Positions 1 to 48,196 of a stretch of DNA of 64,000 bases are shown piece by piece. Numbering within the stretch: position 1 is the first letter of the stretch; each line of letters starts with the position of its first letter. The stretch lies in the sequence record SRR31156797_6344; one strand, given 5' to 3'. The translations under genes and the position numbers were made by a program. The notes under the pieces were generated by a model. It was given only the letters and a program-made list of their open reading frames with translations. It ran no database searches and was not told the origin of the DNA.

Positions 1-735
1 ACCAATCTCATCCAGAAAAAGCGTACCGCCCTCAGCTGTTTCAACTTTGCCTTTTGTCGTCTTTTGTGCGCCAGTAAATGCCCCTTTTTCGTAACCAAAC
101 AACTCACTCTCTAAAAGGGTTTCAGGTATTGACGCACAGTTGATAGCTACGAACGGTTGTTGCTTCCTGCCACTTAGGTTGTGAATAGAGTTGGCGATAA
201 CTTCTTTACCTGTGCCACTTTCTCCAAGAAGTAGGGTACTAATGTCAGTAGGAGCAATACGTTCAACGAGTCTGCATACTTGTTGTATTTTTGGGCTATT
301 GCCTATGAAACCATTTGTGTCGAGTGAAAACCGCTTGAGTTGTTCGTTTTCATGCTCAAGGTTGGCAAGTACGAAGGCTCTATTCACAATCACGGTAAGT
401 ATTTCGTCGTCAATGGGCTTATGATAAAAATCATGTGCACCCATTTCGATTGCCTTCAACGCTATATCTTTGTCATCGTTACCGGTGATAACAATGATTT
501 TAGCTTTGGGCATTAAGCTCAGGATCTCTTTTAATGTAGCGAGTCCTTCACTTGCGTTATCTGGGTCTGGAGGTAAACCCAAATCTAACGTAATCACTTT
601 GGGTTCATGCCGCCTTAATGCGTTAATGGCTGAGTTGCAGTCCTGTGCCTGGATGACGTTATAGTCAGCAAAAGTCCACTTTAGTTGTTTTTGAATGCCA
701 ATATCATCTTCGATGACCAGTAGTGTTTCTTTCAC
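1..735 (-). CDS. prsR: Sigma54-dependent response regulator PrsR (receiver + AAA+), 3' part runs off window
   Basis: Not in the ORF track. Manual translation from GTG at 735 gives [25 protein letters not shown] (receiver domain), later GESGTGKE and [15 protein letters not shown] (bEBP motifs). Directly downstream of prsK. Confidence 0.93.
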
Positions 736-820
736 ACCTTTTGCCTCATTATTAAGTTTTGTCATTACTGCGGTTTGGTTGAAATTTAGCGAAGTTAATC
801 AACAGAATTTTGCAGTTATA

Positions 821-2860
821 TTAATTTTGAATGGGAATATGCATCGTAAAGCAAGAGCCTTTGCCCGGTTCTGATTGAACATCAATATAGCCTTTTAATT
901 GTTCAATCATCTTTTTAGCGTCATACGCACCAATGCCCATGCCTGAATTACCTTTTGTTGTGTCAAAGGGTTTGAATAGTCGTTCCTCTATAAAGTCGGC
1001 ACTCATACCTATCCCGTTATCGGTAATACTAATAGTGTAGTAGAGCTCTTGTTTATCTGACTCGACGACAACGGAACCTTTGTGACCGGTAGCTTCTTGG
1101 GCGTTTTGAATTACGTGGGACAAAACATTGCTAAAACGCTCTTTGTCGGCGGTGATGAACATCGGCTCTTCAAAATGTGCAACATATTCTGGTTTTGGCT
1201 GAGTGACATTTCTACTTTTACAGACAGACTCTATAACCGACTCTAGTGAAAAGGTCTCACTATCGTTGTTGGGCTGATTTTTCTTTCTCAAATGATCGAC
1301 TACTTTGGTTAGACGCAGCACGGCGGAATCAATTGTCTCAAATGCGTCATCGATAAATTCAGGGTTATGGCGGTGTTGCTTTCCGTTTTTAGCGAGTAAT
1401 TGTAGCTGTGCCAGAACATTTTTTAAGTCGTGGGCGAGAAAAGCAGACATCCGGTTAAAGGTATCAAACTGTTGGTTCTCCGAAAGAATTTTGCTGGTTT
1501 GGTGCAAGTTTAAATATACCGCTAACTGAGTGCTAATTGCGGTCATCAAATCTCGGTCTTCCCAGTTTAATGCATGTGTTGAATGAGGATTTGAAATCAA
1601 ACAAGCGCATTTTAAATCGCTGTCATTTGAAATTGGGACAATAAATCGAAAGCTGGTGATTTGTTTCACTTCCTCAGCATTAAAAGTGAATGGCGCTTTA
1701 CTACTGTTGTCTAGTAGTTCTTCAATATCAATGATCCAGTGATTTTCTATTGCTGATTCAACCAGAGCCTGTAGTGTGGACTTTGGATCAGGGTAACTTT
1801 CATCCAGATTAAAATAGGCGTAGTGTTTGAGAGTGCCTGATTGTAACGTTACAAGCGTTCCTCGCTCACTCTCAAAAGGCTCAAGCATCGCCTGTAGCGC
1901 CACGTGATAGGGGGATTCGCTCTTATTTTTAAGTACTGAGGCGAAACGCATCCATTCTTCACGATACTCATATTTGTTGGCGTAAAAGTGTTTAGCAATA
2001 AATACTTTGAGTTGGCGACGAAGTGACTCAGAGATGAAAAGACTGGCAAACAGTAATCCGCTAAGCGCAAAAAAAATGTTTTGTGCCATGCTGCCCCAGC
2101 TACCACCCGCATATCGAATGTAATAGCCTGCGCCAGCCATCAGCAACAAGTAAAGGCCTGCGACCACAAGTAATGTGCTGTGATAAACCACATCGCGCGA
2201 AACATACACACGTGTAGCCCAACTTGTGATTCTACGTGATGACATTAAAATGAGTGGCAAGGTTAATATCATTATCCACCCTCGGCCAAACCAAAACACC
2301 AGGTCAAGATTGGCGGTTAACAAGCCGTTGGCATACAAAGCAAAGTCGTAAGCAAACATCAGCCCTAATCCCAAGCAAAGTGGCTTAATTGTCCAACGAT
2401 CATGTTTTTCGGTACGACGGTATAACTGTTCAACTAGCCATAAACCAATTGCTGTTTGTATTAAATGGAATAGTATGATGGTTTTATTTTCCAACAATGG
2501 CTGAACCAAATTGACCAGTTCAGTTAGTAAAACGAAACAAAATGATATGGCGAGCCAACGAGAGTTAAACTTGTCGTCTTTAATAGTAGTTTTGAAGTTG
2601 TCACTGTTGCTTAAAGTACTAAGCAGCAACAAGAACCAAGAAAAATTTCTTACTGACTCAAGAGTTAAAGTCCATTTTTGAGGTAGGTTTAAAAAGATGA
2701 ACCCAGCAGAACCACTGGCCCACAAACAACTAAAGATGGTTGCAACAATAAGCAAAGTGCGTTGAAAACGGCGAGTACTAGTGGTTAGTAATAATAGGAA
2801 GAGAGAAAAAAAACCGACAGCGGTTAATGTATAACCGCTAAGACCAAACCACATATTCAA
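821..2860 (-). CDS. prsK: PEP-CTERM system histidine kinase PrsK
   Basis: Multi-TM N-terminus, YANKYEYREEW, H-box AFLAHDLKN, N-box IQNAQEA, DNGIG, FKPFDTTK and GMGIG; adjacent to prsR and the PEP-CTERM gene. Confidence 0.93.
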   Translation of the reverse strand: MNMWFGLSGYTLTAVGFFSLFLLLLTTSTRRFQRTLLIVATIFSCLWASGSAGFIFLNLPQKWTLTLESVRNFSWFLLLLSTLSNSDNFKTTIKDDKFNSRWLAISFCFVLLTELVNLVQPLLENKTIILFHLIQTAIGLWLVEQLYRRTEKHDRWTIKPLCLGLGLMFAYDFALYANGLLTANLDLVFWFGRGWIMILTLPLILMSSRRITSWATRVYVSRDVVYHSTLLVVAGLYLLLMAGAGYYIRYAGGSWGSMAQNIFFALSGLLFASLFISESLRRQLKVFIAKHFYANKYEYREEWMRFASVLKNKSESPYHVALQAMLEPFESERGTLVTLQSGTLKHYAYFNLDESYPDPKSTLQALVESAIENHWIIDIEELLDNSSKAPFTFNAEEVKQITSFRFIVPISNDSDLKCACLISNPHSTHALNWEDRDLMTAISTQLAVYLNLHQTSKILSENQQFDTFNRMSAFLAHDLKNVLAQLQLLAKNGKQHRHNPEFIDDAFETIDSAVLRLTKVVDHLRKKNQPNNDSETFSLESVIESVCKSRNVTQPKPEYVAHFEEPMFITADKERFSNVLSHVIQNAQEATGHKGSVVVESDKQELYYTISITDNGIGMSADFIEERLFKPFDTTKGNSGMGIGAYDAKKMIEQLKGYIDVQSEPGKGSCFTMHIPIQN

Positions 2861-3012: not shown

Positions 3013-3960
3013 TTAGCTGTTAAGCTGTCTTTTGCGGCGGGATTGGAAACCAGCAAAGCCCAAAAATGCAAGACCCATTAGACTTAACATACCTGGTTCT
3101 GGAACAACGGCGAGGTCTAATTGTCCCCCGTTTAATGTTACAGTTGCACCTACGTCAGAAATGTTTGCACCTATCAAATCTTCTGAACTACTTATACCTA
3201 AAGCAGCTAATACGTCACTTGCAACAGCATCCAATTCATCAACATATTCGTTGTTGTCACCTATAGATGAAGCTACGCTCGAAGAGGCTACAGTTTCTCC
3301 ATAAATCTTTGAATCGAATCTTTCATAATAATCGCTACTGCTATCATTTAGTATGTCCCAAATATCTACCCATACACCACCGACTTCAACATAAAAATAA
3401 TCTTGGATTATATCAGTAATTAAATATTGGAGATCTAATTGACCTATAAGTTCTAAGTTACCTGAGGAACCGGTTATAACAGTAGACGTCCCGTTAACAA
3501 GAGTTAATTCAAGTAACTCAGTGGGTGACGGAGTACCATTATCTTCATACCAGGTTTGAGTAGAGCCAGCGTCAAATTCGACGTCGAAAAAGGTTCTTCC
3601 ACCGCCAATATCAGCACCAGTCAAAAATGTACCAGTCATGTTGTCTGTTATGGCATAAACATCAGAAAGTGTACCTGTTGTGTCCCCATTGTCTGCTGGA
3701 AATAAATAGCCATAATCGGTAAAGGTATCACCAGTACTCACACCAGTGGGGCCTGTATCACTTGTGATAGCAACTAGCGTGTACCCCGTATAACTAAAAA
3801 TGTCAAAATCAGCTAGTCCTGTGTTTGTATCACCATCTCTGTCGGAATCGATAGCCCAGTCTAAAGACGCTAAGTTCAACGAGCCGGCGTAAACTGAGCT
3901 AGTGGTAAACAACGCAATACCGAGTAGACAGGCTCCTAACCCATTTTTTAATATGTTCAT
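3013..3960 (-). CDS. PEP-CTERM sorting-domain surface protein (acidic, Ser/Thr/Gly/Asp-rich; possibly flocculation PepA-like)
   Basis: N-terminal signal peptide (..SSVYA-G) and C-terminal VPEPGMLSLMGLAFLGFAGFQSRRKR = PEP motif + TM helix + basic tail. Confidence 0.95.
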   Translation of the reverse strand: MNILKNGLGACLLGIALFTTSSVYAGSLNLASLDWAIDSDRDGDTNTGLADFDIFSYTGYTLVAITSDTGPTGVSTGDTFTDYGYLFPADNGDTTGTLSDVYAITDNMTGTFLTGADIGGGRTFFDVEFDAGSTQTWYEDNGTPSPTELLELTLVNGTSTVITGSSGNLELIGQLDLQYLITDIIQDYFYVEVGGVWVDIWDILNDSSSDYYERFDSKIYGETVASSSVASSIGDNNEYVDELDAVASDVLAALGISSSEDLIGANISDVGATVTLNGGQLDLAVVPEPGMLSLMGLAFLGFAGFQSRRKRQLNS

Positions 3961-4006
3961 CCTTTAATCCTCTTGAAGGTAAGATTTCATCGTTCAATGT
4001 CAATAA

Positions 4007-4022
4007 ACAAAGTTCATGCCAA
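4007..4022 (-). promoter_or_regulatory. Sigma54 -24/-12 promoter of the PEP-CTERM gene
   Basis: Minus strand reads TTGGCATGAACTTTGT: GG-N10-GT, a one-base variant of the GG-N10-GC consensus, 46 nt upstream of the ATG. Confidence 0.75.
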
Positions 4023-4028
4023 TAAATT

Positions 4029-4041
4029 TAACGTATTGATT
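4029..4041 (-). promoter_or_regulatory. IHF binding site
   Basis: AATCAATACGTTA matches WATCAANNNNTTR exactly and lies between the sigma54 site and the enhancer. Confidence 0.7.
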
Positions 4042-4095
4042 TTTATAAATATAAATATGGTAAAAATAATAATGGATGATATTTTATTGTAGTAG

Positions 4096-4112
4096 TGTAA
4101 AAAAAACTGACA
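4096..4112. promoter_or_regulatory. Candidate PrsR enhancer site 1 (TGT-N11-ACA)
   Basis: TGTAAAAAAAACTGACA, ~76 nt upstream of the -24 element; a near-identical copy sits at 4248. Confidence 0.65.
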
Positions 4113-4247
4113 TCAATGAGGCGGATATTTATTGCTGTATCTTTCGCGTTTGACTCACTTTCGTATTTTTACCATAAGATTTCATTTAACTAATTGAAAA
4201 TTGACCAGACCAAAGTGTTATCTGATAGTTTTCACTTTTGACTACAG

Positions 4248-4264
4248 TGTAAAAAATAATGACA
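4248..4264. promoter_or_regulatory. Candidate PrsR enhancer site 2 (TGT-N11-ACA)
   Basis: TGTAAAAAATAATGACA; shares GTGTAAAAAA-N3-TGACA with site 1. Confidence 0.55.
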
Positions 4265-4505
4265 GTTGCTCAGTTAGGAATAAATTGTAGACTTACAGTA
4301 TTGTAATTTAATAATTAAGTTACAAAATACTATCTCAATCAATATTTTTACATTATCGACTATATTAGAAATAGAAAATAAACTAACTTACGAAAATTTA
4401 TTTAATCCTTTAAGGTTAGGTAGATATAGTGGGTTAATTTTTTAAGTGATAACTTAGCGTATAGCTTCTTGGTTTAACACGATTTTTCTATTCAGGAGAT
4501 TTCTC

Positions 4506-5414
4506 ATGGAAGATAAGAGCAATCCAAAAAAACTTAACGGAAAAACTGTGCCAGTGGAACGAAGACGGGAAGTGCGTTTATCTAAAGAAGAAAATCAGGG
4601 GAGCCCACACACGTGCGCTGTCACCTATAAGATTGCAGATGAGAAAGAAACGCTTGAAGAAGCGTTTACTTTAGTCTGGAAAAATTATGTCGAAACAGGC
4701 TTACAACGTGACGATCACGAGGGTCTACGTTTTACTAAATATCATTTGCTGCCCGATACAAGAGTATTTGTCGCCAAGTATCACCAAGCGCTCGCCGATC
4801 AAACACCTGAAAAATTCGATGGTTCTGGAGAAATTGTCGGTACCATTACTCTAGTGTTAGATAGTCCTATGGGCTTACCCATGGAGGAGTTTTGTGGGGA
4901 TGAAATTGCTGAACTAAGGGCTCAAGGACGTAAAATGGCTGAGGTCATTGCATTCTCAGTGAACCCTCACTACACCAAGTACAAAGTGTTTCTCCATATG
5001 TTTAAGCTGTTGTTTCAGTTTGCAGCGATGAAGGAAGTGACTGATCTATGTTGTTCGGTAACTGAAAGGCATATTAAGTTCTATCGTAGAGTTTGTTTGT
5101 TTGAACCTATGGGAGAGCTGTTACCCTATTCAGCCGCTTATAAGTTAAAAGTACAAGGCCATCGATTAAATATTGAAGAAGCGAAAAAGAAAGCGGAAGC
5201 CTTTTATTCAGGTAAGGAGTTCGATGCGGACTTACACCGATTCTTTTTTACTGAAAGTTACAATCGCAACAAAGGAGAAGGTAAGCCTCTTTCTGAGGAG
5301 CTACTGCATTACTTTCTCAAAGAGCGTTCACATTTTCTCGATAACGTACTCGAAGATGATCTATGTACACTCAGGGCAGAGTACGACCGAGTAGGGCAGA
5401 GCTTTCCTTTTTAA
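4506..5414 (+). CDS. N-acyl amino acid synthase, FeeM/exosortase-associated acyltransferase family (GNAT fold)
   Basis: Motifs AFTLVWKNY, IVGTITLVLDSPMGLPME, AEVIAFSV, VTERHIKFYRRV..FEP; RBS AGGAG; this family is known to be linked to PEP-CTERM loci. Confidence 0.8.
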   Translation: MEDKSNPKKLNGKTVPVERRREVRLSKEENQGSPHTCAVTYKIADEKETLEEAFTLVWKNYVETGLQRDDHEGLRFTKYHLLPDTRVFVAKYHQALADQTPEKFDGSGEIVGTITLVLDSPMGLPMEEFCGDEIAELRAQGRKMAEVIAFSVNPHYTKYKVFLHMFKLLFQFAAMKEVTDLCCSVTERHIKFYRRVCLFEPMGELLPYSAAYKLKVQGHRLNIEEAKKKAEAFYSGKEFDADLHRFFFTESYNRNKGEGKPLSEELLHYFLKERSHFLDNVLEDDLCTLRAEYDRVGQSFPF

Positions 5415-5474
5415 ATCAGTATTTCTATTAAAAGTAGTCGCCTTTACAGGCACCGATTATAGGGACAAACATAT

Positions 5475-6365
5475 ATGGACCATGACGAATACTATCGATT
5501 AGCGGTAACTCGCAACCTTGGTTTAGTCACTGAGGAAGAGCAAAAGCAACTTCGTAACTCCTGTGTTGCCGTTGCTGGTTGTGGCGGGCTAGGAGGACGG
5601 GAGTTAATCGACTTAGTCCGTATGGGTATTGGTTCGTTCAATGTTGCGGATTTCGATGAGTTTAGTATAAAAAATGTCAACCGGCAGATTGGTGCAACAT
5701 CCTCTACTGAAGATAAACCCAAAGTAGAAGTCATGGCTGAAATGGCAAAAGATATTCATCCTGGTGTGGATATCAAAATGTACACCAATGGTATTCAACC
5801 TGAAAATGTCGATGAATTTGTGAGTCAAGCCGATGTCATTGTTGATGCAATAGACTTTTTCTCAATGCCAGCCCGTTTGCTACTTTATCGTACTGCTCGC
5901 AAGCATGGTAAACCGGTTGTTTTTGCCGCTCCGTTAGGATTTTCGGGTACGCTAAATGTGTTTATGCCTGATGGTATGAGCTTTGAAGAATATTTCGACA
6001 TACATGATGATATGGAACTGTTTGATCAACTGATTGCTTTTACTGTCGGAGTTGCTCCATGGGGGACACATTGGCAATATATGGATACGAACAAGGTCGA
6101 TTCATCTGATCATGCGGGACCATCTCTTGCGTGTGCGTGTAACATTGCAACTGGCATGCTGACATCAGAAGTCTTAGTGATTTTACTTAACCGACGACCA
6201 CCGATGGCCGCACCTTACTATATGCAGTTTGATACTTATCGATGCATCTATAGAAAAGGCAAGTTACGCTGGGGAAACCGAGGTCCATTACAACGGATCA
6301 AGCGCAGCCTAGCAGCAAGAAAGTTCGCAAGTCAAAGGCATTTATTGGACGCCGCACCTTCTTAA
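5475..6365 (+). CDS. ThiF/E1-like adenylyltransferase, stand-alone
   Basis: RNLGLV..EEQKQL, VAGCGGLGG nucleotide loop, DFDEFSIKNVNRQ, PKVEV, DAID; no CxxC zinc pairs or rhodanese domain. Confidence 0.9.
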   Translation: MDHDEYYRLAVTRNLGLVTEEEQKQLRNSCVAVAGCGGLGGRELIDLVRMGIGSFNVADFDEFSIKNVNRQIGATSSTEDKPKVEVMAEMAKDIHPGVDIKMYTNGIQPENVDEFVSQADVIVDAIDFFSMPARLLLYRTARKHGKPVVFAAPLGFSGTLNVFMPDGMSFEEYFDIHDDMELFDQLIAFTVGVAPWGTHWQYMDTNKVDSSDHAGPSLACACNIATGMLTSEVLVILLNRRPPMAAPYYMQFDTYRCIYRKGKLRWGNRGPLQRIKRSLAARKFASQRHLLDAAPS

Positions 6366-6426
6366 GCGGCAACCAAGAGTCGCAATTCGTAAAACAGTCA
6401 GCAAAGTCCTCTGGCTGTTTTGTTGT

Positions 6427-6834
6427 TTATGGGAGAAGCATTGTGGTCAGGTGGCTTTTGGGGCGTTTTGCCAACCAAAACACAAACAGTACGCCTGTCA
6501 TTATCCCAATTACATTGGCGCTAAAATCAGCGAGCGAGGGTTCTCTCGCCGGGATCCAGTTTTGCAATAGTTCAAGGATTAATCCATAGCTAACTAAAGT
6601 CATAACGATGTGTTTAACTTGCCTAGTTCCAAAAACCATGACGGCAAACACGACAAAACAAGCGTAAGCCCCTGCATGAGCGAATTTATCTAAGTTCGGG
6701 ATTTCAAAGCTATTGAGGTCAGGAACCGTAGCGTTAGGAGAAGAGTCGTTGGCCAATGACACATAGGCTATTAGTAAAGTATAGATACCGAGTATAGCGA
6801 GTCGCATTAACCGCATAGTTTTTCTCATAAGCAT
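6427..6834 (-). CDS. VanZ family membrane protein
   Basis: DKFAHAGAY, LELLQNWIPAREPSLADFSANVIG. Confidence 0.88.
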   Translation of the reverse strand: MLMRKTMRLMRLAILGIYTLLIAYVSLANDSSPNATVPDLNSFEIPNLDKFAHAGAYACFVVFAVMVFGTRQVKHIVMTLVSYGLILELLQNWIPAREPSLADFSANVIGIMTGVLFVFWLAKRPKSHLTTMLLP

Positions 6835-6837
6835 GGT

Positions 6838-7590
6838 TTAAGGTAATTCTAACAACATACGCCGTAAGTACTTAATAGGTATGGCATATGTTATTGCGCT
6901 GGGGTCGGTCAACATGGATTCTTTGGTTGATTTGATTAACACCTTATTGATTACAGCGATCACTTCGCCAGTTTCTGGGTCAAAAACAGGACTCCCACTA
7001 TTACCGGGATAAGCAACCGCATCTAATTGGTACACGTAGTATGGGTTTCTTAGCTGTTTAATCCTTTTGGCCGTCAGTTCCGATTCATTTCTGGCAGGTA
7101 TGACTATCGGAGTAATACTTGAAATGATGCCTCTATGGGTGACGGGATATAAACCGAGTAGTGCTCCGAGTGGATAGCCAGTAAACGCATAGAGTTCTCC
7201 CTCTCTGACCGTTTTACTTGATAGAGTAAGTGGTGACAATGTTGGCCCCTGTACTTTTAGAATGGCAATGTCGTAAACATCATCTCGAGTAATGACTTCT
7301 GCATTGTAGGCTTTTGCCTGCTTACCTTTGCCTGCGTAGATAACGACTTTCTCGTTATTTTTTGTATCGATAATACTCGGTATTACATGAGCATTGGTAG
7401 CGATGTAGCGACCATCTTTTATCGCAAAACCAGTACCAAGAATATTAAAGGGTTGCCCAGCTAATCGATTATAGGTGCCAACGCCCACCACTGATGGTTG
7501 CAAGACGGCTAGGGTCTCTGGTAACCCCGCCGTGGAAAATGTTGCTTTCAGCGTTAAGAAAAAGACCAGTAAAAACCTGTATGCAACCAT
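6838..7590 (-). CDS. Secreted trypsin-like serine protease (no PDZ domain)
   Basis: Signal peptide; GTGF, ATNAHV (His), DIAIL (Asp), PGNSGSP (Ser). Confidence 0.9.
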   Translation of the reverse strand: MVAYRFLLVFFLTLKATFSTAGLPETLAVLQPSVVGVGTYNRLAGQPFNILGTGFAIKDGRYIATNAHVIPSIIDTKNNEKVVIYAGKGKQAKAYNAEVITRDDVYDIAILKVQGPTLSPLTLSSKTVREGELYAFTGYPLGALLGLYPVTHRGIISSITPIVIPARNESELTAKRIKQLRNPYYVYQLDAVAYPGNSGSPVFDPETGEVIAVINKVLIKSTKESMLTDPSAITYAIPIKYLRRMLLELP

Positions 7591-7613: not shown

Positions 7614-10406
7614 TTATAAGCTACTAATCTTTATTTCTAAAGCTTTCTTCTGATTTAAAAATTTAGCGTCATCAGTAACAATTCTATCCAGGACAATTTT
7701 TGCTTGTTGGATTTGTCCATCAGCAATAAGACTTTCTGCATAATGTAAAGCAATTTCCGGGTAAGTACTGATAGCCTGATATGCCTCTTTTAGAATAGAA
7801 ACAGCTGTTTTAATTTCCCCTTTTTTTAGTAAGCAGTAACCATGAGTATCACTAATTTGCGGATGACCATTTGCGAGTTGATAAGCTTGTTCCGAATATT
7901 GACAAGCTAGAGTGTAGTCTTCTTGGTCCAAATAAAGCCAGGATAAGTTGTTTAGTGCAATTACGTTTTTGGGTTCTCTCGCTATGATTTCTTTGTATTG
8001 TGTAATAGCTGCTTTTTCATCAAATTGTGTTTGGACATCTGCGAGTAAGAGTTGCAGTGCTTTAGCTTTATCTGGGTGGGATTTGATAACACTTGTGAGA
8101 AAATCAGCTGCCAAAGATGGTTGTTTGTTAGCAGTGTAAAGTGTTGAGAGTTCTTTGGCTGTTTCGAGTCCAGGGTTTACCTCATAGCGTTTTTGAAAGA
8201 TAGGTATAGCTTTATCAAATTTATCATGCTTCACATAAAGCATACCTTGGAGCTTCAGCGTGTAATCTAAGTTTCTTACGTTTGGAGCTAACGAATCTAA
8301 AATTGTTTGAGCGTTATCTAACTTACCTGAACTGATTAAAAGATCGGCTTTCATTATAGGAAAGCGGATGTCATTGGGAAACAGGTTAATAGCTTTATCA
8401 GCCATAATGATCCCAGAGCTATGTTTTTTGTTTAAGGCTGATATATGAATAGAACGGATATAAGCATTTACATCAGTCGGAGCCATTTTCAACCATTTTG
8501 AGTATGCACGTTCAGCGTCCACCCACTGTTTTTGAGCAAAGTATATATTTCCGATCATTTTCCAGATATCGGCTGTTTTATCTTGTTCTGGTAGTTGTTC
8601 TAACATTGCTAAAGCTTGGTTTATATTACCACTTAGTGCTAACGCCATAGCCTTCTGAGGGATAAGATCAACGTTATCTGGATCTTCCGATAGCTGCTTA
8701 TTGATGAGTTCAAGTAACTCAGACGTTTTATTTGTTTGTTTACTCGTGATGTACAATAGCCTAGTAGCTGACCTATCATTGGGAGAAAGTTGTTTGGCTT
8801 TGTAGGCGTACTTAAACGCTTCTTCCCATTCTCCGGAGTTTGTAAGAATTTGCGCATAAAGAAAATTTGCGCGCTGATGTTCTGGATTGATACTTAGAGC
8901 TTCAAGGTAAGTTTGCTTAGCTTGATCGATCTCCTGACGTGCTTGGAAAGTGGTCGCTTTCAACGTCAGAGCATCGGCATCTTTGTTATTAGCTTTAAGC
9001 CATTTGTCTGCAATTTCGTCGGCTTCATCGACAGCACTTAGTTGCAAATAATAGTAGCCTATGCCTAACTCTGCTTTTCTTTGGTCTGGTTGTTCTTGGA
9101 CAGCAGATTTTAAATCTTCTATACCGGATGCGTCTTTGCCAGACAGTTTGACCATGCCTAACATCATTTCATTAAACTGACCGTCATCACTTTCATACGC
9201 TTTCTGAGCGAGTTCGAGGGCTTCCTCATTACGTCCCAGTTTTGATAGTTCCATACTGGATTGCGCGAGAAAAGCGCTAGTCTCTTTTGATTCAGAGTTC
9301 AGTGCGGATAACTCTTCCACTGCCTCGTCTATGTAGCCGAGTTTAAACTGCGTCGCAATGTATAGACGTCTCGCGAAATGGTCTTCTGGTAAGCGTGGAG
9401 TAACTTGTCTTAAACGATTATTGGCTTGTTCATACAGTTTTAGTCTATAGGCTGAAACCCCTGAAATTAGCGCGGCAGACAGGCTGTTTGAGCCATTGTT
9501 TAATGCTCGGTCTGCATGCTGCTTAGCGGACTCAAAATCGTTAGTTGAAAAATCGATGGTTGCTTTCAGGTCATTGGCTAGGATCTGGTTGGGGTTTTGT
9601 TTTAAAATACTATCAATATATGGTTTCGCCTTGTTTAGCTGCCCGTCCATGACCAATGCTCTGGATATAAACAGGGTAAAATAAGATGCTTTTGGTGAGA
9701 TTTGATAAGCTCTGCTATAGCTTTCAGCTGCAAGATCATAACTTTTCTGTGCCATTTCTAAATGGCCTTTGAGCAACCAAGCGTCAGTGTTTACATCATT
9801 AATGCTGATCACTTCATCGACAATACTCAGCGCTTGATCGATATTTCTTTGCGCAGCATCCAGCCTTGCCTGACTGAGTTTGACATATTGAGAGTCTAAC
9901 GCTGTATCCCCAGCAAGTTGTAAGCTTTGTTTTGCTGCATCAACTTGGTTTAGATTTAGTTCGGCGATTGCTTTTACGGCTAGAAGCTCGCTGTTTACGT
10001 AAGGGTCACTAAAACGGTTTGCTTCAATATAGTCTATGACCTCTTGGTTTTTGGCCATGTTCAGTTTGACTCTCATTAACAGAGGGACGACATCTTCGGG
10101 TGTTGCCCCCAGTTCAATGGACCTTGCTAACTCTTTCTCCGCATCAAGATAGCTGCCTTGTTGTGCGTATATTTGACCGAGAAGAACACGAGGCAGAGCT
10201 TCATTTGGGGAGTTCTGAATCGAGTTTTTTAATTCGATAACTGCCGCTGGAATATCATTTTTTTCTAGGTGTTTTTGAGCATTATCTAGATATTTGTCAG
10301 CTAAAGAAGAGTAGCTATAAAGCAATGACGTGGTTAAAGTAAAAATAAGCGTGGATTTTCTTATAAATTTCTGACGTAACTTCAGCATATCTTTCCCTGA
10401 TAACAT
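7614..10406 (-). CDS. prsT: PEP-CTERM system TPR-repeat protein PrsT
   Basis: 930 aa of TPR repeats, AVIELKNSIQ, ALNNLSWLY, DTHGY; locus context. Confidence 0.9.
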   Translation of the reverse strand: MLSGKDMLKLRQKFIRKSTLIFTLTTSLLYSYSSLADKYLDNAQKHLEKNDIPAAVIELKNSIQNSPNEALPRVLLGQIYAQQGSYLDAEKELARSIELGATPEDVVPLLMRVKLNMAKNQEVIDYIEANRFSDPYVNSELLAVKAIAELNLNQVDAAKQSLQLAGDTALDSQYVKLSQARLDAAQRNIDQALSIVDEVISINDVNTDAWLLKGHLEMAQKSYDLAAESYSRAYQISPKASYFTLFISRALVMDGQLNKAKPYIDSILKQNPNQILANDLKATIDFSTNDFESAKQHADRALNNGSNSLSAALISGVSAYRLKLYEQANNRLRQVTPRLPEDHFARRLYIATQFKLGYIDEAVEELSALNSESKETSAFLAQSSMELSKLGRNEEALELAQKAYESDDGQFNEMMLGMVKLSGKDASGIEDLKSAVQEQPDQRKAELGIGYYYLQLSAVDEADEIADKWLKANNKDADALTLKATTFQARQEIDQAKQTYLEALSINPEHQRANFLYAQILTNSGEWEEAFKYAYKAKQLSPNDRSATRLLYITSKQTNKTSELLELINKQLSEDPDNVDLIPQKAMALALSGNINQALAMLEQLPEQDKTADIWKMIGNIYFAQKQWVDAERAYSKWLKMAPTDVNAYIRSIHISALNKKHSSGIIMADKAINLFPNDIRFPIMKADLLISSGKLDNAQTILDSLAPNVRNLDYTLKLQGMLYVKHDKFDKAIPIFQKRYEVNPGLETAKELSTLYTANKQPSLAADFLTSVIKSHPDKAKALQLLLADVQTQFDEKAAITQYKEIIAREPKNVIALNNLSWLYLDQEDYTLACQYSEQAYQLANGHPQISDTHGYCLLKKGEIKTAVSILKEAYQAISTYPEIALHYAESLIADGQIQQAKIVLDRIVTDDAKFLNQKKALEIKISSL

Positions 10407-10719: not shown

Positions 10720-11859
10720 GTGGCTGTAAGGGAAACGAATAGCGTTCAGTGTGAATGGTTTAAAAATCCTGACAGGGAATGGTTAAAATCAGTATGGCAA
10801 AGCTTAGAACCTAAAACTGAAGCGAATTTTTTCCTTAGCTGGATGTGGATAGGCACTTGGCTAGATACTTTCGTTAAAGAATTTTATGTAATTGAAGCCC
10901 GTAAGAAAAATGAAACGGTTGGTTTAGGGATCATCGTTACCAAGCCCTGTGGATTCCGGTTTGACCGACTCAGCGCCAAGCATTATTTACATCGCACTGG
11001 GATTCCATCTGAAGATCAAATATGGATAGAATATAACGATTTTCTGATCACCGCCGAAGATACAGATAATATACGTGCCGCTATGTTTTCAAGCGTCGCA
11101 TATCGAATCGGTAAGAAAGAAGCGTTTGTTGTTGGTGCGAGCAAACCAGAGCAGTTTTCTACTGTAAATACGTCTGGCTTGTGTGAACGAAAAATCTGGG
11201 AAACGCACAGTTACTATCTTGAACTCAAAGAATTCTCTCGTGAAACGCCATCTTTGTTGAAGTCTCTCTCCCGCAATGCTCGCTATCAAATCACTCGAAG
11301 TTTACGTAAATATGAGGAAATTGGTCCTGTCACCATAGATACCATGGTCACGGAACAGCAAGCTCTCGATTTGCTTAAATATGCCAGTCCTTATCATTTA
11401 GCGCGTTGGGGCGGGGAGAGTTCAGGAAGTGGCTTAGCGAACAGAAAATTTGTTGCGTTTCATAGGCAACTGATTCGTTCAGGCTTACCTGCTGGAGTTA
11501 TTCAACTTCATCATATTAAAGCAGGTAACGAAACAGTCGGTATCGTCTACAACTTCAATTACAGAAACACGATTTATTTCTATTTTTGTGCAATGAACTA
11601 CAGTCGCGTTGTATCAAGTTCACATTATAAACCCGGACTCGTGTCACACTATTTATTAATAGAAAAAGCCATAAAAGAAGGAGCAGATATCTACGACTTT
11701 ATGGGAGGTAAAGGGAGATACAAGAGTACTTTCGCTAATAAGAGAAGCACTCTATCTGTATATCAGTTTGAGCGAAGTCGTTGGCTTCTCTCTGCCGAAA
11801 ACTGTGCCAGAGATTTAAAGCATAAACTTTGGACCAACAGGAAACCCTATAACGTTTAA
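10720..11859 (+). CDS. GNAT N-acetyltransferase-fold protein, CelD/BcsL-like
   Basis: FFLSWMWIGTW, IWIEYNDFL, LSRNARYQITRS, KPGLVSH, YDFMGG..RYK. Confidence 0.8.
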   Translation: MAVRETNSVQCEWFKNPDREWLKSVWQSLEPKTEANFFLSWMWIGTWLDTFVKEFYVIEARKKNETVGLGIIVTKPCGFRFDRLSAKHYLHRTGIPSEDQIWIEYNDFLITAEDTDNIRAAMFSSVAYRIGKKEAFVVGASKPEQFSTVNTSGLCERKIWETHSYYLELKEFSRETPSLLKSLSRNARYQITRSLRKYEEIGPVTIDTMVTEQQALDLLKYASPYHLARWGGESSGSGLANRKFVAFHRQLIRSGLPAGVIQLHHIKAGNETVGIVYNFNYRNTIYFYFCAMNYSRVVSSSHYKPGLVSHYLLIEKAIKEGADIYDFMGGKGRYKSTFANKRSTLSVYQFERSRWLLSAENCARDLKHKLWTNRKPYNV

Positions 11860-13408: not shown

Positions 13409-15190
13409 TTGACTAATGGAATAACGATTTTGAGAAACGGAAAGCAATCGTCAGTACTGGTTCTTGGAGAGGATACTCGGAGTTTCCTTTCGGTTATTCG
13501 TTCATTAGGAGAAGCAGGTTATCGAGTGCATGTTGTCTGCTATGATCGAAAAAGTGCAGCGTTAGAAAGCAAGTACATCGAAGCGCAATATTACTATAAC
13601 TACCAGTCCTGTACTCAGGAAGAGTGGTTGAACAATGTGGTTAAGCTCATTGAGTGGTACCAATATGATTTGATTTTTCCCTGTGATGAAAGAGCTATCT
13701 ACCCTCTGTGGTCAGCGAGACATCGTTTACCTGATCATACTCAACTTGCAATAGCAAATCCTAAAGGTTTGGATGTACTTTTTGATAAATGGAAGACAAA
13801 GCAAGTTGCAACTTCCTGTCAAGTGCCTGTAGCAAAAGGGGAGATTGTTGACCTGCATAAAACATCCTATGCAGACTTGTATCAACAATTCGGTCCTGAG
13901 TTTGTTATTAAGCCATTACAATCATTCGAAGAGACAAACCTGTCCCAAAGGCAAAAGGTGATAATTGTTCACTGTGAACAGGATTATGAACGATATTGCG
14001 AACAAAGTTTAGCTGAACAGCTTTACCTTATTGAAGCCTTCTTTGCTGGTAAAGGTGAAGGTGTATCTGTGTTTTCGGTTGATGGCCAAGTTCATGCTGC
14101 ATTTGCTCATAAGAGAGTGGCAGAGCCCAACAGCGGAGGTGGGAGCTCATACAGAATTAGTATTAAGCTGGATGAAGCACTGCTAAAAGCGACTCAAGAC
14201 ATTTGCCACGCAACTAACTACACCGGCGTGGCTATGTTTGAGTTTAGGCGTAATCAGGATGATGGTAGCTGGATACTGGTTGAAGTGAATGCTCGGTTTT
14301 GGGGTTCACTTCCGTTAGCCGTTTTTGCTGGAGTCAATTTTCCTGCACTGTATGCTGATTACTTAGCTACAGGTGCTTTGCCTAAAGAACCTATTCTTGA
14401 CTATCGGCAACGTGTCACCGCTCGAGCTCTGATTGCCGATCTTTATGAAATAAAACGGGAACTTGAAACCGCTCAAGAGGGAAACAGTCAGTTTAAAGGT
14501 AGAGCTACTGGTATGTTGCGATTACTTGCGATAACTAAGTTAGTTACTCCTTTTGAAACAGTAGACAGCTTCAGTTGTAAAGATTTGGGGCCATTTTTTG
14601 GGGAAGTCAAAATACTAGCGAGTGCATTTACTGGTGCAATGTTTAAGAAAAATCGGTTGCGACTGCTTATTCGTCGAATTAAAACCCGAAATAAAATACG
14701 TAAGTTGCTCAAGATTAATAATAATCGGCGAATTATTTTTATTTGCTACGGAAACATTATGCGTAGTCCGTTTGCCGAAGTTTGTTTGAAAAGCCAGTTT
14801 TCTGAAGAGAGTGGTAAACGATGCGATTCATATGGATTTCATCTACACGAACAGCGACAAAGCCCAGACAACGCGATGAAAGCAGCAACTGCACTTAACT
14901 ATGATTTGTCTAACCATAAATCCAAATGGTTGACACAAAATGATATGACTGAGTCCGATATTGTTATTTATTTTGATGAACGCAACCAGGAAAAGCTGCA
15001 ATCTTACTATTATCTAAATCATATGTTTTGTGCTGCGGATTTGTTAGGGCAGTCTTTTCCACTGACGCATGAAATCAGCGACCCATATGGTCAAAGTGTT
15101 GCTGATGTTGAGGCGTGTTATAAGCAGATAAGTAATGCTGTGCAAGGGTTGTTTGATATCGTCAAGGAGGTAGAACTGTGTCAGGGGTAA
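13409..15190 (+). CDS. ATP-grasp ligase fused to a C-terminal low-molecular-weight phosphotyrosine-phosphatase-like domain
   Basis: VIRSLGEAG, DKWKTK, VIKP, GVAMFEF, LVEVNARFWGS (ATP-grasp), then FICYGNIMRSPFAE and ISDPYG (LMW-PTP). Confidence 0.85.
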   Translation: MTNGITILRNGKQSSVLVLGEDTRSFLSVIRSLGEAGYRVHVVCYDRKSAALESKYIEAQYYYNYQSCTQEEWLNNVVKLIEWYQYDLIFPCDERAIYPLWSARHRLPDHTQLAIANPKGLDVLFDKWKTKQVATSCQVPVAKGEIVDLHKTSYADLYQQFGPEFVIKPLQSFEETNLSQRQKVIIVHCEQDYERYCEQSLAEQLYLIEAFFAGKGEGVSVFSVDGQVHAAFAHKRVAEPNSGGGSSYRISIKLDEALLKATQDICHATNYTGVAMFEFRRNQDDGSWILVEVNARFWGSLPLAVFAGVNFPALYADYLATGALPKEPILDYRQRVTARALIADLYEIKRELETAQEGNSQFKGRATGMLRLLAITKLVTPFETVDSFSCKDLGPFFGEVKILASAFTGAMFKKNRLRLLIRRIKTRNKIRKLLKINNNRRIIFICYGNIMRSPFAEVCLKSQFSEESGKRCDSYGFHLHEQRQSPDNAMKAATALNYDLSNHKSKWLTQNDMTESDIVIYFDERNQEKLQSYYYLNHMFCAADLLGQSFPLTHEISDPYGQSVADVEACYKQISNAVQGLFDIVKEVELCQG

Positions 15191-35109: not shown

Positions 35110-35304
35110 TTAGCACTCCGCTTTAATCGGTTTAGTCATCCCTTTTCTAGCAAATGAGAGTGGTTTTTCTACAGTGACAAACAATAGTGTAGATGCAATG
35201 AATGTGAGTATGAAAACCGGCCCCATAAGACCATAGAACCACAAATCCCATTGATGATTGGCTGGGATGAGATAACCCACGCGAAAATAATAACTATCTA
35301 TCAT
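35110..35304 (-). pseudogene. 64-aa ORF resembling the C-terminal end of an acyltransferase-3 (OafA-like) protein; probable deletion remnant
   Basis: Hydrophobic helix ending ASTLLFVTVEKPLS resembles the family's terminal vE.P motif; the ORF exactly fills the xrtA-asnB gap. Confidence 0.5.
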
Positions 35305-36730
35305 TAGCTAATATCCTCCTATCCTTCAATATAGAATTTGAAAAATTTCTTTGTAGCTCTACAAAGTTCATCGTACTGCTGTAAATGGCAGAAATACTTA
35401 AGGATATTTTTTGGTTTGTAATGATGTAGTAAGATTTTAGTAGTTTTATTTTTAACTTGTTATTGGAACAATAATTATTGATACAGTACCAATAAATGAT
35501 TCTTTTTGAGTTACCATCTTTATTTACAAGTGATACTCCTGCTGCTTGGCTTTTATTAACATCGAGCGTGAGTAGTTTGTCTATTGTCCAGGTTTCTTTG
35601 TCATAAAGAGAGTTCTGGCTGGTTATTAAGTCTGACCGATTCTTTTCAGTGTAATAAGCAATATGGAAAAAATTAAACGAGCTGTCTGGTGAAGACTCGA
35701 TAACAACTTGATCGGCGGGTGGTAACTTAATGTTCCAGTTAGATAGCTGAGCTGTTGGGTTAACAGTGTTGTTGTCGATGGTTGTGTTGCTATAGATGGA
35801 ATTTAGCCAAAGAGTCGTACTGACTAATAGAAAAATGATTGCAGACAGTGACAGCGGAAGATGATTATCTTTAGTTTCTAAAGGGGATTTCTGAGCAGTG
35901 CTTAAGGCTTCTGTTTCAATAACGTTATCTTGAAAATACCAAGCAACATAGAACATCATGATAGTCACCATGGCAAAAAATACCCATCCGTAAATGAGAT
36001 GGTCAGCGCCTGTCGCATACTTCATATCACTCAGGTAACCGATCATAATGATTCCATAGGCTCGTATCCCATTTGCGAGGATCGGGAATAGACATGCAAA
36101 TATTACGAAAAGACCAAACTTCCACTTCTTGACGAAAAAGAAGTTTGCAAACAGGGTTCCTAATGCAATGCTTGATATTAGGAAACGGATTCCAGAACAT
36201 GCTTCTGCTACTTCAAACTTACCGTTGGGGATTGTTAGATATAAACCCTCTCTAAAGACCGGCACGCCAGATAGCCTAACCATCATGACAGAGAAGTACG
36301 CAGTGACTTTTTGAAGATAAGGAATTAATTCTTCTCCAAAAGGAATGCAGAACACAAGATAAAATAAGGGGAACTGCAGTAGTTTGGCGAGTTGGTTACC
36401 GATTAAAGCCCAAATGATTAACTGTAAGCTCGTCACCGCTGCGATGTGTTCAAAGAAGGCGATGCCAGCTACTCTTCCCACCAGCCAAAGTAAACAAGGC
36501 AAGACAAGTAGTATAATTGGTAAAAAGGCTGTGTCGAGCGGGCAGTCTTTTATCTGATCTTTCTTTTGCCATATTAACCACAGGCTAATAGGTAAAATTA
36601 AATATGAGTGTTCATAAGTTTTTGAGTTAGACCAAACTCCGACCATATCCTGAAGAGATGACCAGTAAACAAACAGCCAAACTAAAAGGGGGAGACCAAA
36701 GCGAGCAACTAGACGAACGTTAAGACTCAT
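35294..36730 (-). CDS. xrtA: Exosortase A with C-terminal EpsI-like domain
   Basis: Catalytic triad motifs VAEACSGIRFL (Cys), ANGIR (Arg), ADHLIYGWVFF (His); TYEH, IPFGE; multi-TM. Confidence 0.95.
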   Translation of the reverse strand: MSLNVRLVARFGLPLLVWLFVYWSSLQDMVGVWSNSKTYEHSYLILPISLWLIWQKKDQIKDCPLDTAFLPIILLVLPCLLWLVGRVAGIAFFEHIAAVTSLQLIIWALIGNQLAKLLQFPLFYLVFCIPFGEELIPYLQKVTAYFSVMMVRLSGVPVFREGLYLTIPNGKFEVAEACSGIRFLISSIALGTLFANFFFVKKWKFGLFVIFACLFPILANGIRAYGIIMIGYLSDMKYATGADHLIYGWVFFAMVTIMMFYVAWYFQDNVIETEALSTAQKSPLETKDNHLPLSLSAIIFLLVSTTLWLNSIYSNTTIDNNTVNPTAQLSNWNIKLPPADQVVIESSPDSSFNFFHIAYYTEKNRSDLITSQNSLYDKETWTIDKLLTLDVNKSQAAGVSLVNKDGNSKRIIYWYCINNYCSNNKLKIKLLKSYYIITNQKISLSISAIYSSTMNFVELQRNFSNSILKDRRILANDR

Positions 36731-47758: not shown

Positions 47759-48196
47759 GTGAGAGTGTTAGTCGTTTGTACAGCCAACATATGTCGTTCG
47801 CCATATGGGGAGTTTAAGCTAAGGCAGTTACTTCCAGATTTTACAATCAGCTCTGCGGGTTTAGATACGGATAGAAATCGTCTGGTTGGTAAGGCCGCTG
47901 ATTCAGTCGCGGTAAGGGTTGCCGCTGAATCTCTAGTTGACCTAAAAAGTCACCGGGCTAGGCAGTTAACTGACGATATGGTTGATCAAAATGATGTTAT
48001 TTTGGTCATGGAAAAGAAGCATATGGATACAATATGCGATTATTTTCCGGCATTACGTCATAAAGTTTTCCTATTTTCTTTCCCTATTGATAACTCAGAC
48101 ATAGAAGATCCCTATAAAAAAGGAGAGCTATCATTTCGTTTGGCTTTTAATTTTATAGATGATGCCGCTGAAGGCTGGATGATGAAGTTGCGATAG
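47759..48196 (+). CDS. wzb: Low-molecular-weight protein-tyrosine phosphatase
   Basis: VCTANICRSP, SSAG, VME, DIEDPY. Confidence 0.9.
   Translation: MRVLVVCTANICRSPYGEFKLRQLLPDFTISSAGLDTDRNRLVGKAADSVAVRVAAESLVDLKSHRARQLTDDMVDQNDVILVMEKKHMDTICDYFPALRHKVFLFSFPIDNSDIEDPYKKGELSFRLAFNFIDDAAEGWMMKLR

Follow-up and report, generated by a model that had tools for sequence, protein, structure and literature searches.

N-acyl amino acid synthases (NAS) are combined with a ThiF-type protein and a flavin oxidase in the characterised OxzAB, TyzABC and TrzAS pathways and in the NasY clusters, as described in PMC10404671, PMC12856293 and bioRxiv 10.1101/2020.06.11.147165. Split forms consisting of three genes are published in PMC12479983, and a link between NAS and exosortases has been in print since 2011 (Craig 2011, cited in PMC7293339). 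The oxazolone lipids and N-acyl dehydro-amino acids are recent discoveries, and the role of the ThiF enzyme is termed 'enigmatic' in the account given by the latest paper on these lipids (PMC12479983).

The DNA analysed here (the window) is a stretch of 64,000 nucleotides, in which a gene for a predicted FeeM-type NAS is followed by one for a ThiF-family protein. The separate N-acyltransferase and stand-alone ThiF are shared with TyzA/TyzB/TyzC, the N-acyl tyrazolone pathway of Mycobacterium tuberculosis, in which TyzB, a protein of 318 aa likened by description to the window ThiF of 296 aa, cyclises N-acyl amino acids with ATP. The flavin oxidase TyzC, however, is encoded beside TyzB, while no oxidase was detected in the window, its locus or 8 related genomes, and both the host and the gene context of TyzABC, as described in PMC10404671, differ from those of the window. 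For OxzA/OxzB of Pseudoalteromonas rubra and other proteobacteria, the N-acyltransferase gene likewise adjoins a ThiF that falls in the NCBIfam family of the window protein, but OxzB, according to bioRxiv 10.1101/2020.06.11.147165, joins ThiF and nitroreductase in one protein of about 640-690 aa, whereas the window ThiF stops where the linker would start. A mechanistic precedent, ThiF-first cyclisation to a saturated ring without oxidase activity, is provided by TrzA/TrzS of mycobacteria and Rhodococcus: by the account in PMC12856293, cyclisation by the ThiF part of TrzS comes first, and the cyclised, saturated intermediate accumulates when the oxidase is dead (R540A) or O2 is low. TrzS is, in contrast to the window ThiF, a fusion of another subcluster (PMC12856293), and on the Rv1355c-family model, with its cut-off of 476 bits, the window ThiF reached only 65. 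The clusters for N-acyl dehydrotyrosines (stieleriacines, thalassotalic acids and kyonggic acids) carry NasY, ThiF and nitroreductase as three separate genes, and the cluster of Stieleria maiorica includes a PEP-CTERM gene, with exopolysaccharide genes upstream; in the NasY clusters covered by these accounts (PMC12479983, PMC7293339), ThiF and nitroreductase are both present or both absent, whereas the window carries ThiF alone. Since ThiF and oxidase are usually both present or both absent among the characterised and candidate clusters of PMC12479983, a ThiF alone is without precedent in print as far as that account extends.

The FeeM-ThiF pair within an XrtA/PEP-CTERM locus

The pair sits within a Vibrio XrtA/PEP-CTERM locus, which is complete and composed as follows (strand in brackets).

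1..765 (-): PrsR, sigma-54-dependent response regulator, cut at the window edge (TIGR02915, E 5.6e-116, 255 residues present)
821..2860 (-): PrsK, XrtA/PEP-CTERM system histidine kinase (TIGR02916, 654 bits against a cut-off of 300)
3013..3960 (-): PEP-CTERM protein, PepA-like, 315 aa (PF07589, 24.2 bits against a cut-off of 20.7)
3961..4505 (no strand): divergent spacer between the PEP-CTERM gene and the FeeM-type gene, 545 bases, AT-rich
4006..4021 (-): sigma-54-like site TGGCATGAACTTTGTT, 45 bases upstream of the PEP-CTERM gene and outside the FeeM-ThiF pair
4506..5414 (+): gene for a predicted FeeM-type N-acyl amino acid synthase, 302 aa (PF21926 match)
5475..6365 (+): gene for a predicted stand-alone OxzB/TyzB-type ThiF-like adenylating cyclase without an oxidase domain, 296 aa (NF006077)
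6427..6834 (-): VanZ-family membrane protein gene, convergent with the ThiF gene (PF04892)
6838..7590 (-): trypsin-like serine protease gene (PF13365, E 1.8e-24)
7614..10406 (-): PrsT, XrtA/PEP-CTERM system TPR protein (TIGR02917, 591 bits against a cut-off of 312)
35294-36730: XrtA (score above cut-off)

The two open reading frames of the pair were found as the earlier note had described them, both on the + strand, divergent from the PEP-CTERM gene across the 545-base spacer, with 60 bases between them. PrsK and PrsR flank the pair on one side, and the VanZ, trypsin-like protease and PrsT genes on the other; the protease gene is kept in all Vibrio loci examined. The floc_PepA match of the PEP-CTERM protein was weak. 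No small ORF ending in Gly-Gly was found near the pair, in agreement with the same note, in which no carrier or precursor partner was visible. No Rfam family matched the window between 1 and 12000.

The FeeM-ThiF module is an accessory part of the XrtA/PEP-CTERM exopolysaccharide and protein-sorting locus. ThiF-family matches were detected in 399 of 401 Vibrionaceae genomes, but only 13 exceeded the NF006077 cut-off, and in all 13 carriers this ThiF gene is located 0.4-3.3 kb from PrsT. Within a class-wide sample, an exosortase was present in 34 of the 36 ThiF carriers, so that the co-occurrence with XrtA loci raised earlier is borne out. This fixed position by the PEP-CTERM gene, PrsK/PrsR and PrsT gives a concrete place for testing the functional link between N-acyl amino acids and exosortase sorting proposed in 2011.

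Based on family score and fold, the product of 4506..5414 is a FeeM-type N-acyl amino acid synthase, with the activity predicted. It matched PF21926 of Pfam over residues 52-215 (E 8.7e-38, 130 bits against a cut-off of 27), aligned with positions 30-278 of NF011425, the model of fused FeeM-ThiF-oxidase proteins, and matched the sequence of FeeM in PDB 2G0B (E 4e-8). The predicted structure (pLDDT 80.6) gave chains of 2G0B FeeM only as the top six Foldseek matches, with TM of 0.79-0.84 normalised to the target. A GNAT/AHL-synthase-like core at about 39-234 is followed by C-terminal helices (243-295), and the disordered N-terminus carries a conserved motif, E-R-R-[RK]-E-[VI]-R. AGGAG is located 8 bases 5' of the ATG. 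Like the exosortase-associated acyltransferases of TIGR03694, the window has a NAS gene inside an exosortase locus, but a search with TIGR03694 gave nothing at E 0.01 or better for this protein (curated cut-off 111.95 bits); by sequence, it belongs to a FeeM subfamily other than TIGR03694.

By score, motifs and modelled fold, the window ThiF belongs to the OxzB/TyzB-type ThiF cyclase family, for which ATP-dependent cyclisation is predicted. On NCBIfam NF006077 (PRK08223), it scored 356.4 bits against the curated cut-off of 266, and the ThiF half of a Pseudoalteromonas ThiF-nitroreductase scored 412.6 bits; the model also covers the ThiF half of OxzB-type fusions. The window ThiF is not a housekeeping protein. 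PF00899, the Pfam ThiF domain, extends over residues 13-259 (E 2.8e-49). No second Pfam domain was detected, neither nitroreductase (PF00881) nor rhodanese, and a CxxC pair is absent from the sequence, all as the earlier note had it. The protein is 43% identical over 277 aa to the 640-aa ThiF-nitroreductase P0216 of Pseudoalteromonas sp., which may not be OxzB itself. The 103 best-matching of its longer relatives reached E 8e-52 or better, with identities of 38-48% across about 94% of the query; all of them carry the ThiF part at the N-terminus, and 92 contain PF00881. The motifs GxGGxGG, DxD, NxNRQ, K and DxxD show no variation across 30 homologues, at G35, G37, G38, G40, G41, D59, D61, N67, N69, R70, Q71, K83, D124 and D127, which we take, from ThiF/MoeB structures, to be ATP/Mg-binding residues.

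The model of the window ThiF (pLDDT 93) shows an E1-like fold, with TM of 0.86 to E. coli ThiF 1ZUD normalised to the target, and MoeB also matched. In a tree with MoeB outgroups, the protein was placed within the small-molecule cyclase clade with 100% support; together with the family scores, this groups it with the OxzB-type cyclases, and the TcdA/MoeB/ThiF housekeeping grouping that the earlier note had allowed for was not observed. The best PDB sequence match was TcdA, the tRNA ct6A synthase (E 1.2e-24, residues 24-154), which is also of the ThiF family and produces an oxazolone ring in an adenylation and cyclisation reaction. TcdA, however, works on tRNA, and the C-terminal half of the window ThiF is unrelated to it by sequence. 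A complex prediction for ThiF and FeeM, run without controls, returned a score of 0.00, which speaks neither for nor against association.

Presence and absence of the oxidase gene

The module lacks a flavin-dependent oxidase of the nitroreductase superfamily, either fused or adjacent, and with its adjacent N-acyltransferase present is thus incomplete compared with OxzAB, TyzABC and TrzAS. Oxazolone-synthase homology with the oxidase missing had been noted earlier, and it held at full scale: a six-frame scan of the 64-kb window with a custom oxidase HMM, filters off, revealed no oxidase-like frame (best E 0.16). Only 61 bases separate the stop of ThiF from that of VanZ. Sister loci L002-L006 show the gene order of the window plus an oxidase ORF of 354-376 aa, which starts 13-93 bases after ThiF and is located between the ThiF and VanZ genes, while L001, 97% identical to the window, and L007 are without it. 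As the sister Vibrio loci carry a separate oxidase at the same spot, the FeeM-ThiF pair represents a reduced variant and not a different design. The earlier proposal of an undescribed system therefore has to be withdrawn: pathways of NAS, ThiF and flavin oxidase, their split forms and the NAS-exosortase link are already published, and the sister loci carry the oxidase. What is new here is the missing oxidase.

Among the 13 Vibrionaceae genomes with an NF006077 ThiF, 5 carry the oxidase in the locus and 8 do not. For these 8, namely the 97%-identical relative of the window (a MAG) and 7 other Vibrionaceae genomes, a genome-wide search with a profile of 13 oxidase sequences (positive control, 3.5e-149), covering homologues of the known flavin oxidase only, gave no copy elsewhere at E 0.01 or better. 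Distant oxidase homologues were found elsewhere in the genome for the non-Vibrio oxidase-less genomes of Lamprobacter and Neptunomonas qingdaonensis. The FeeM HMM matched in at least 37 of 80 loci; this count is a floor, because the HMM, built from close homologues, misses other synthase families such as that of L086, where two true TIGR03694 members (249.8 and 232.8 bits) are located beside another oxidase-less ThiF.

The five Vibrio oxidases form one clade, and their sister relationships follow the order found for the ThiFs. On the ThiF tree, the presence and absence of the oxidase require at least 6 changes, 5 of which are forced by well-supported branches, and these at least 5-6 changes are best read as repeated losses. 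Between oxidase-less pairs, dN/dS was 0.030-0.039 for ThiF and 0.017-0.035 for FeeM, indicating strong purifying selection on both, where only pairs with finite dS were used and most Vibrio pairs were dropped on account of saturated synonymous sites. The window and each of the 8 Vibrionaceae genomes without the oxidase carry a full-length ThiF. The close conservation of the two remaining genes hints at a use for the un-oxidised product, and the oxidase-less pairs would then say that the cyclase does something useful by itself. Natural two-gene versions, with the oxidase lost in several lineages and the cyclase strongly selected, are ready-made experiments, and in oxidase-less strains the saturated ring or its reaction partners can be sought without interference.

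Predicted product and alternative readings

From these comparisons we consider it fairly probable that the pair represents the N-acyl amino acid oxazolone module, known to combine three activities (an N-acyltransferase, a ThiF-like ATP-dependent cyclase and a flavin oxidase), in a form that lacks the oxidase. By family membership, the FeeM-type enzyme would acylate an amino acid with a fatty acyl chain taken from acyl-CoA or acyl-ACP. By homology and the published work on TrzS, ThiF would then adenylate this N-acyl amino acid at its free carboxylate, and the amide oxygen would close the ring to give a saturated 2-alkyl-oxazol-5(4H)-one (azlactone). Without the oxidase, the ring should stay saturated, and the end product would be this labile, electrophilic oxazolone or something formed from it: hydrolysis could regain the N-acyl amino acid, perhaps in racemised form, or a nucleophile could form an adduct. 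The most likely product is thus predicted to be a saturated, reactive oxazol-5(4H)-one, formed from an N-acyl amino acid cyclised with ATP. One point counts against an oxidase-less cyclase: a saturated azlactone hydrolyses easily, and ATP is then spent for no net change unless the ring is used. Candidate uses put forward earlier for the product are a signal sensed by PrsK, acyl donation and a new metabolite.

Such a use might be acyl transfer, with the adenylate or azlactone made by ThiF serving as an activated N-acyl-aminoacyl donor to an amine or hydroxyl group on the exopolysaccharide, a second amino acid or an XrtA-processed protein. Azlactones are acylating agents, the XrtA loci in which the module has its fixed place contain genes for a polysaccharide deacetylase and FemAB-like transferases as well, and ThiF is kept under purifying selection without the oxidase. 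We nevertheless hold this to be unlikely, as no dedicated transferase gene is specific to the oxidase-less loci, the gene orders are otherwise the same as in oxidase-bearing loci, no residue column separates the ThiFs with an oxidase neighbour from those without one (21 sequences), and such a conjugate is without known example. A related proposal, to which we likewise give a small chance, is that the saturated azlactone is the intended product and the pair an ATP-driven generator of this electrophilic lipid, which would acylate an amine of the exopolysaccharide or exosortase-sorted protein, or give N-acyl-D-amino acids through racemisation of the ring. If so, the oxidase of other lineages would only turn this shared intermediate into a conjugated, stable oxazolone, and the role of ThiF, long a puzzle in these clusters, and the unexplained NAS-exosortase link would share one explanation. 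Replacement of the flavin oxidase by an unrelated desaturase encoded elsewhere, so that production of unsaturated oxazolones or N-acyl dehydro-amino acids would go on as before, appears improbable. The restriction of our searches to homologues of the known oxidase leaves room for it, and a free-standing oxidase could act, since the order of cyclisation and desaturation in TyzABC is not obligate according to PMC12856293; but the locus contains no replacement gene, and each of the separate changes in presence and absence would need its own stand-in.

It is very doubtful that only the FeeM enzyme matters after the oxidase loss, its N-acyl amino acids being a surfactant or signal and ThiF a dispensable leftover: lone NAS genes adjoin exosortase genes (Craig 2011, as summarised in PMC7293339), and decay does happen, as in L006 with a split FeeM and L089 with split PrsT and PrsR, but ThiF dN/dS stays at 0.03-0.04 between oxidase-less species and the full-length proteins retain intact catalytic motifs. 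Nor do we see much prospect for a protein-directed E1, in which ThiF would adenylate the C-terminus of a protein or peptide such as the cleaved PEP-CTERM protein or a ThiS-like carrier. Polypeptide C-termini are the substrates of most ThiF-family enzymes (PMC12596934), and a sorted protein is encoded next door; against this stand the position inside the small-molecule cyclase clade, the lack of any invariant Cys across the 30 ThiF homologues and the absence of a Gly-Gly-ended ORF nearby. Exosortase cleavage happens at the membrane, while ThiF, with no signal or membrane domain in Pfam, is predicted to be cytoplasmic. A housekeeping ThiF, MoeB or TcdA identity, suggested by the closest solved structures by sequence (TcdA, ThiF and MoeB), was rejected with near certainty: the scores were 111.9 bits against a cut-off of 275 for ThiF, 89.1 against 449 for MoeB and 63.3 against 304 for TcdA, and the restriction of NF006077 matches to the 13 genomes with a neighbouring PrsT, together with the cyclase-clade placement, led to the same result.

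Promoter-like sites and RNA-library contigs

The pair had earlier been described as wired into the protein-sorting locus, which is right for its position only; the sigma-54-like site precedes the PEP-CTERM gene, while none precedes FeeM. The pattern TGGCAY-N5-..TGC. was found in 9 of 12 Vibrio spacers, 29-53 bases before the PEP-CTERM gene. The copy in the window has GT at -12 where GC is expected from the consensus that we assume for sigma-54. No conserved sigma-54-like site pointing towards FeeM was detected in the 12 spacers. Between 3900 and 6900, 10 sigma-70-like sites were counted against 8.1 expected from shuffles, so that they are no commoner than chance. A seawater RNA library contained 7 short contigs, of 90-99% likeness, covering parts of FeeM and ThiF, although presence in such a library does not equal transcription. 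In one of these contigs, the end of ThiF is joined to the end of VanZ by 70 different letters, compared with 62 in the window.

Organization of the FeeM-ThiF locus

A predicted N-acyl amino acid synthase (FeeM) and a predicted stand-alone adenylating cyclase (ThiF) make up the two-gene unit proposed in the earlier note at 4506..6365; both open reading frames (ORFs) were confirmed by Pfam, and ThiF is, as described there, devoid of a nitroreductase or rhodanese module. The features concerned are:

4506-5414, + strand, FeeM-type ORF, 302 aa (Pfam FeeM, E 8.7e-38)
5475-6365, + strand, ThiF ORF, 296 aa (Pfam ThiF, E 2.8e-49; no further Pfam match)
4006-4021, - strand, window copy of a sigma-54-like site, deviating at the -12 GC

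The two genes are separated by 60 bases, each being preceded by a plausible ribosome-binding site, and a 545-base AT-rich spacer lies between the pair and the divergent PEP-CTERM protein gene. The left 48 kb of the window represents one XrtA/PEP-CTERM exopolysaccharide locus, most genes of which exceed the NCBIfam curated cut-offs, including the marker genes PrsR (response regulator), PrsK (histidine kinase), PrsT (TPR protein) and XrtA (exosortase), together with an XrtA-system deacetylase, a FemAB-like protein, an amidotransferase and polysaccharide genes (chain-length determinant, tyrosine kinase, exporter and glycosyltransferases). Judged from the nearest protein relatives, the host organism is a Vibrio.

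Several other genes of the locus were noted. A second FemAB-like gene (10720-11859; Pfam Acetyltransf_6, no NCBIfam match), divergent from PrsT, keeps its position across all Vibrio loci examined, the canonical XrtA-associated FemAB protein being encoded separately at 37945-39000. The 593-aa ORF at 13409-15190 joins two domains, one of the ATP-grasp type (ATPgrasp_Ter, about residues 184-324) and, at the C-terminus, a low-molecular-weight phosphotyrosine phosphatase (442-582), and a Wzb-like phosphatase is encoded separately at 47759-48196. ThiF and VanZ converge on a gap (6366-6426) that contains, as read by eye, an imperfect inverted repeat and, after it, a run rich in T, which were not among the calls of a terminator scan; in an RNA-library contig of a relative, 70 different letters occupy this gap.

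Family and probable reaction of the ThiF protein

ThiF scored 356 bits on the NCBIfam ThiF family NF006077 (curated cut-off, 266). As a member of the ThiF, MoeB, MoeZ, TcdA or Rv1355c families it was rejected, with scores far under each cut-off. A search against longer proteins gave 130 matches. The top 103 (E at most 8e-52; 573-1062 aa) showed 38-48% identity to the query across about 94% of its length; each of them has its ThiF part at the N-terminus, aligning near end-to-end to our custom ThiF profile, and 92 carry the nitroreductase domain PF00881. One 640-aa protein of Pseudoalteromonas sp. (43% identity to the window ThiF over 277 residues) scored 412.6 bits on NF006077, and therefore this family includes the ThiF half of OxzB-type enzymes. 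On the 989-position triple-fusion model NF011425 (NCBIfam), the window FeeM aligns at 30-278 and ThiF at 307-589. A phylogeny of 113 rows placed ThiF and its relatives, including the fused enzymes, in one clade apart from MoeB-type outgroups (SH-aLRT 100%). The AlphaFold model of ThiF (pLDDT 93) adopts the E1-like fold known from E. coli ThiF and MoeB; among 30 homologues the nucleotide-binding motifs are invariant, and no invariant cysteine was found.

According to PMC10404671, PMC12596934 and bioRxiv 10.1101/2020.06.11.147165, OxzA and TyzA use acyl-CoA to acylate Tyr or Phe; the acylated amino acid is cyclised by the ThiF part in an ATP-dependent reaction and desaturated by a flavin oxidase with O2. 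For TrzS, cyclisation is the first step, and the saturated ring intermediate is what forms when the oxidase has been inactivated or O2 is low (PMC12856293). By analogy the window pair would end at this saturated oxazol-5(4H)-one, which by homology should be its product, and which might then be hydrolysed, racemise or be passed to a nucleophile.

The model of FeeM (pLDDT 80.6) has FeeM 2G0B as its nearest solved structure. In this FeeM subfamily the N-terminus is disordered and contains a strongly conserved E-R-R-[RK]-E-[VI]-R motif (4557-4580, residues 18-25). R-x-x-x-R is the spacing of the c-di-GMP-binding motif of PilZ domains; R20 and R24 of FeeM, invariant in 28 sequences, resemble it in spacing, and Pfam gave no PilZ domain in the window FeeM.

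Retention of FeeM and ThiF without the oxidase

The oxidase, the third activity of the oxazolone pathways, is missing as the earlier note had observed: no oxidase-like frame was found across the full 64-kb window, and only 61 bases separate the stop codons of ThiF and VanZ. For comparison, related loci (L001, L002 and so on) were collected (547 pattern matches, 238 confirmed), and the best 80 of the 238 were scanned with the window proteins and custom HMMs for ThiF, FeeM and the oxidase, the FeeM HMM being insensitive to distant synthase families.

Oxidase status in the best 80 loci
Fused to ThiF: 4
Encoded by its own gene in the locus: 37
Absent, flank of at least 3 kb on each side: 26
Unjudgeable, contig end too near: 13

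All seven Vibrio loci follow the window order (PrsR, PrsK, PEP-CTERM gene, divergent FeeM-ThiF, (VanZ), protease, PrsT, FemAB-like). Five of them, L002-L006, have an additional oxidase ORF of 354-376 aa starting 13-93 bases past ThiF, and L001 (ThiF 97% identical) and L007 lack it as does the window. A sister clade of stand-alone ThiFs from Lysobacteraceae (L010, L012, L014, L016, L019, L020, L035, L043, L049 and L050), and also L017 and L033, had neither a FeeM match nor an oxidase within 10 kb; an AMP-binding (acyl-adenylate-forming) enzyme lies downstream of ThiF in L012 and L016, and MacB/HlyD/AcrB-type efflux genes adjoin it in L017 and L033. The substrate of this clade may differ.

Among 401 sampled Vibrionaceae genomes, 13 had a match above the NF006077 cut-off: five with the oxidase, seven with FeeM and ThiF only, and G013, in which a 284-aa ThiF (locus L086, 9568-13533) is nested in the fused-enzyme clade with the oxidase half missing. 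Its neighbours are PrsT, a PEP-CTERM gene and a tandem pair of TIGR03694 exosortase-associated acyltransferases. L086 is an independent case of oxidase absence, combined with another family of synthases. A 13-oxidase profile (positive control, 3.5e-149 in an oxidase-bearing genome) gave no hit with an E of 0.01 or below in the eight oxidase-less Vibrionaceae genomes, which are related, the closest to the window being a MAG. Outside Vibrio, nothing significant was detected in Hydrogenophilus or Neptunomonas japonica, and distant homologues away from the locus were found in Lamprobacter (two, 1.7e-40) and N. qingdaonensis (one, 9.7e-29). More distant Vibrionaceae ThiFs, under the cut-off with about 253 bits on NF006077, adjoin a GNAT acetyltransferase, a 2OG-Fe dioxygenase and a fatty-acid desaturase outside any exosortase locus (L092, 7303-13149, and L093; genomes G064 and G146).

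The oxidases of the five Vibrio loci form a monophyletic group (100%) with the same sister-group order as the ThiFs, and therefore the oxidase was part of the ancestral module. On a 26-row ThiF tree (20 rows counted, omitting four outgroup and two contig-edge rows), its presence or absence requires at least six changes, five of them forced by well-supported branches. Because the oxidase tree is congruent, we read these as repeated losses, although a gene tree alone cannot strictly separate loss from gain. The low dN/dS in oxidase-less pairs argues that FeeM and ThiF are both maintained as functional genes without the oxidase.

dN/dS (Nei-Gojobori; only pairs with unsaturated synonymous sites)
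ThiF, window and L001, oxidase-less: 0.034 (dS 0.50)
ThiF, L087 and L094, oxidase-less: 0.039
ThiF, L001 and L088, oxidase-less: 0.030
FeeM, oxidase-less pairs: 0.017 and 0.035
Both genes, oxidase-bearing pairs: 0.008-0.11

Signs of decay were seen elsewhere. In L006 (Vibrio hannami, 8969-9951) FeeM is split (135 + 189 aa) despite the oxidase being present, and in L089 (3463-4814 and 10725-13507) both PrsT (638 + 255 aa) and PrsR (379 + 67 aa) are in two pieces, and faster evolution is seen in FeeM (dN/dS 0.21 against L002).

The suggestion of an undescribed system has to be withdrawn, since the pathway with its three activities has been published, as have versions split over three genes (PMC12479983), and N-acyl amino acid synthases have already been linked to PEP-CTERM/exosortase genes (Craig 2011, cited through the summary in PMC7293339). 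In the papers examined on FeeM/ThiF, oxazolones and PEP-CTERM N-acyl amino acids, PMC12856293 among them, we found no description of ThiF retained without the oxidase, and nothing relevant joining oxazolone to exosortase; a network figure in PMC12856293 marks nodes adjoining 'an FDO, an acyltransferase, or both'.

Association with the sorting system

The predicted co-occurrence of ThiF with XrtA-type loci was borne out. PrsT was above cut-off in 47 of the 401 Vibrionaceae genomes, including all 13 ThiF carriers, where it lies 0.4-3.3 kb from ThiF. In a class-wide sample, ThiF was present in 36 of 400 scored genomes and an exosortase (E 1e-25 or better) in 104 of 401, a tally that takes in one genome flagged unpublished; the exosortase was found in 34 of the 36 carriers versus 70 of 364 non-carriers. 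At least 17 of these carriers have both genes on the same contig, 50 kb or less apart. Among 73 non-Vibrio loci, 19 had PrsT, PrsK or exosortase above the curated cut-off within 10 kb, and two more had truncated fragments of these. The counts in this section come from interrelated genomes and do not stand for independent events.

The proposed wiring of the pair into the locus stands in part: the spacer is common to the pair and the PEP-CTERM gene, but nothing points to joint control by PrsR, and no conserved sigma-54-like site is directed at FeeM in 12 Vibrio spacers. In nine of these 12, such a site lies 29-53 bases upstream of the PEP-CTERM gene, which would be consistent with control of that gene by PrsK/PrsR.
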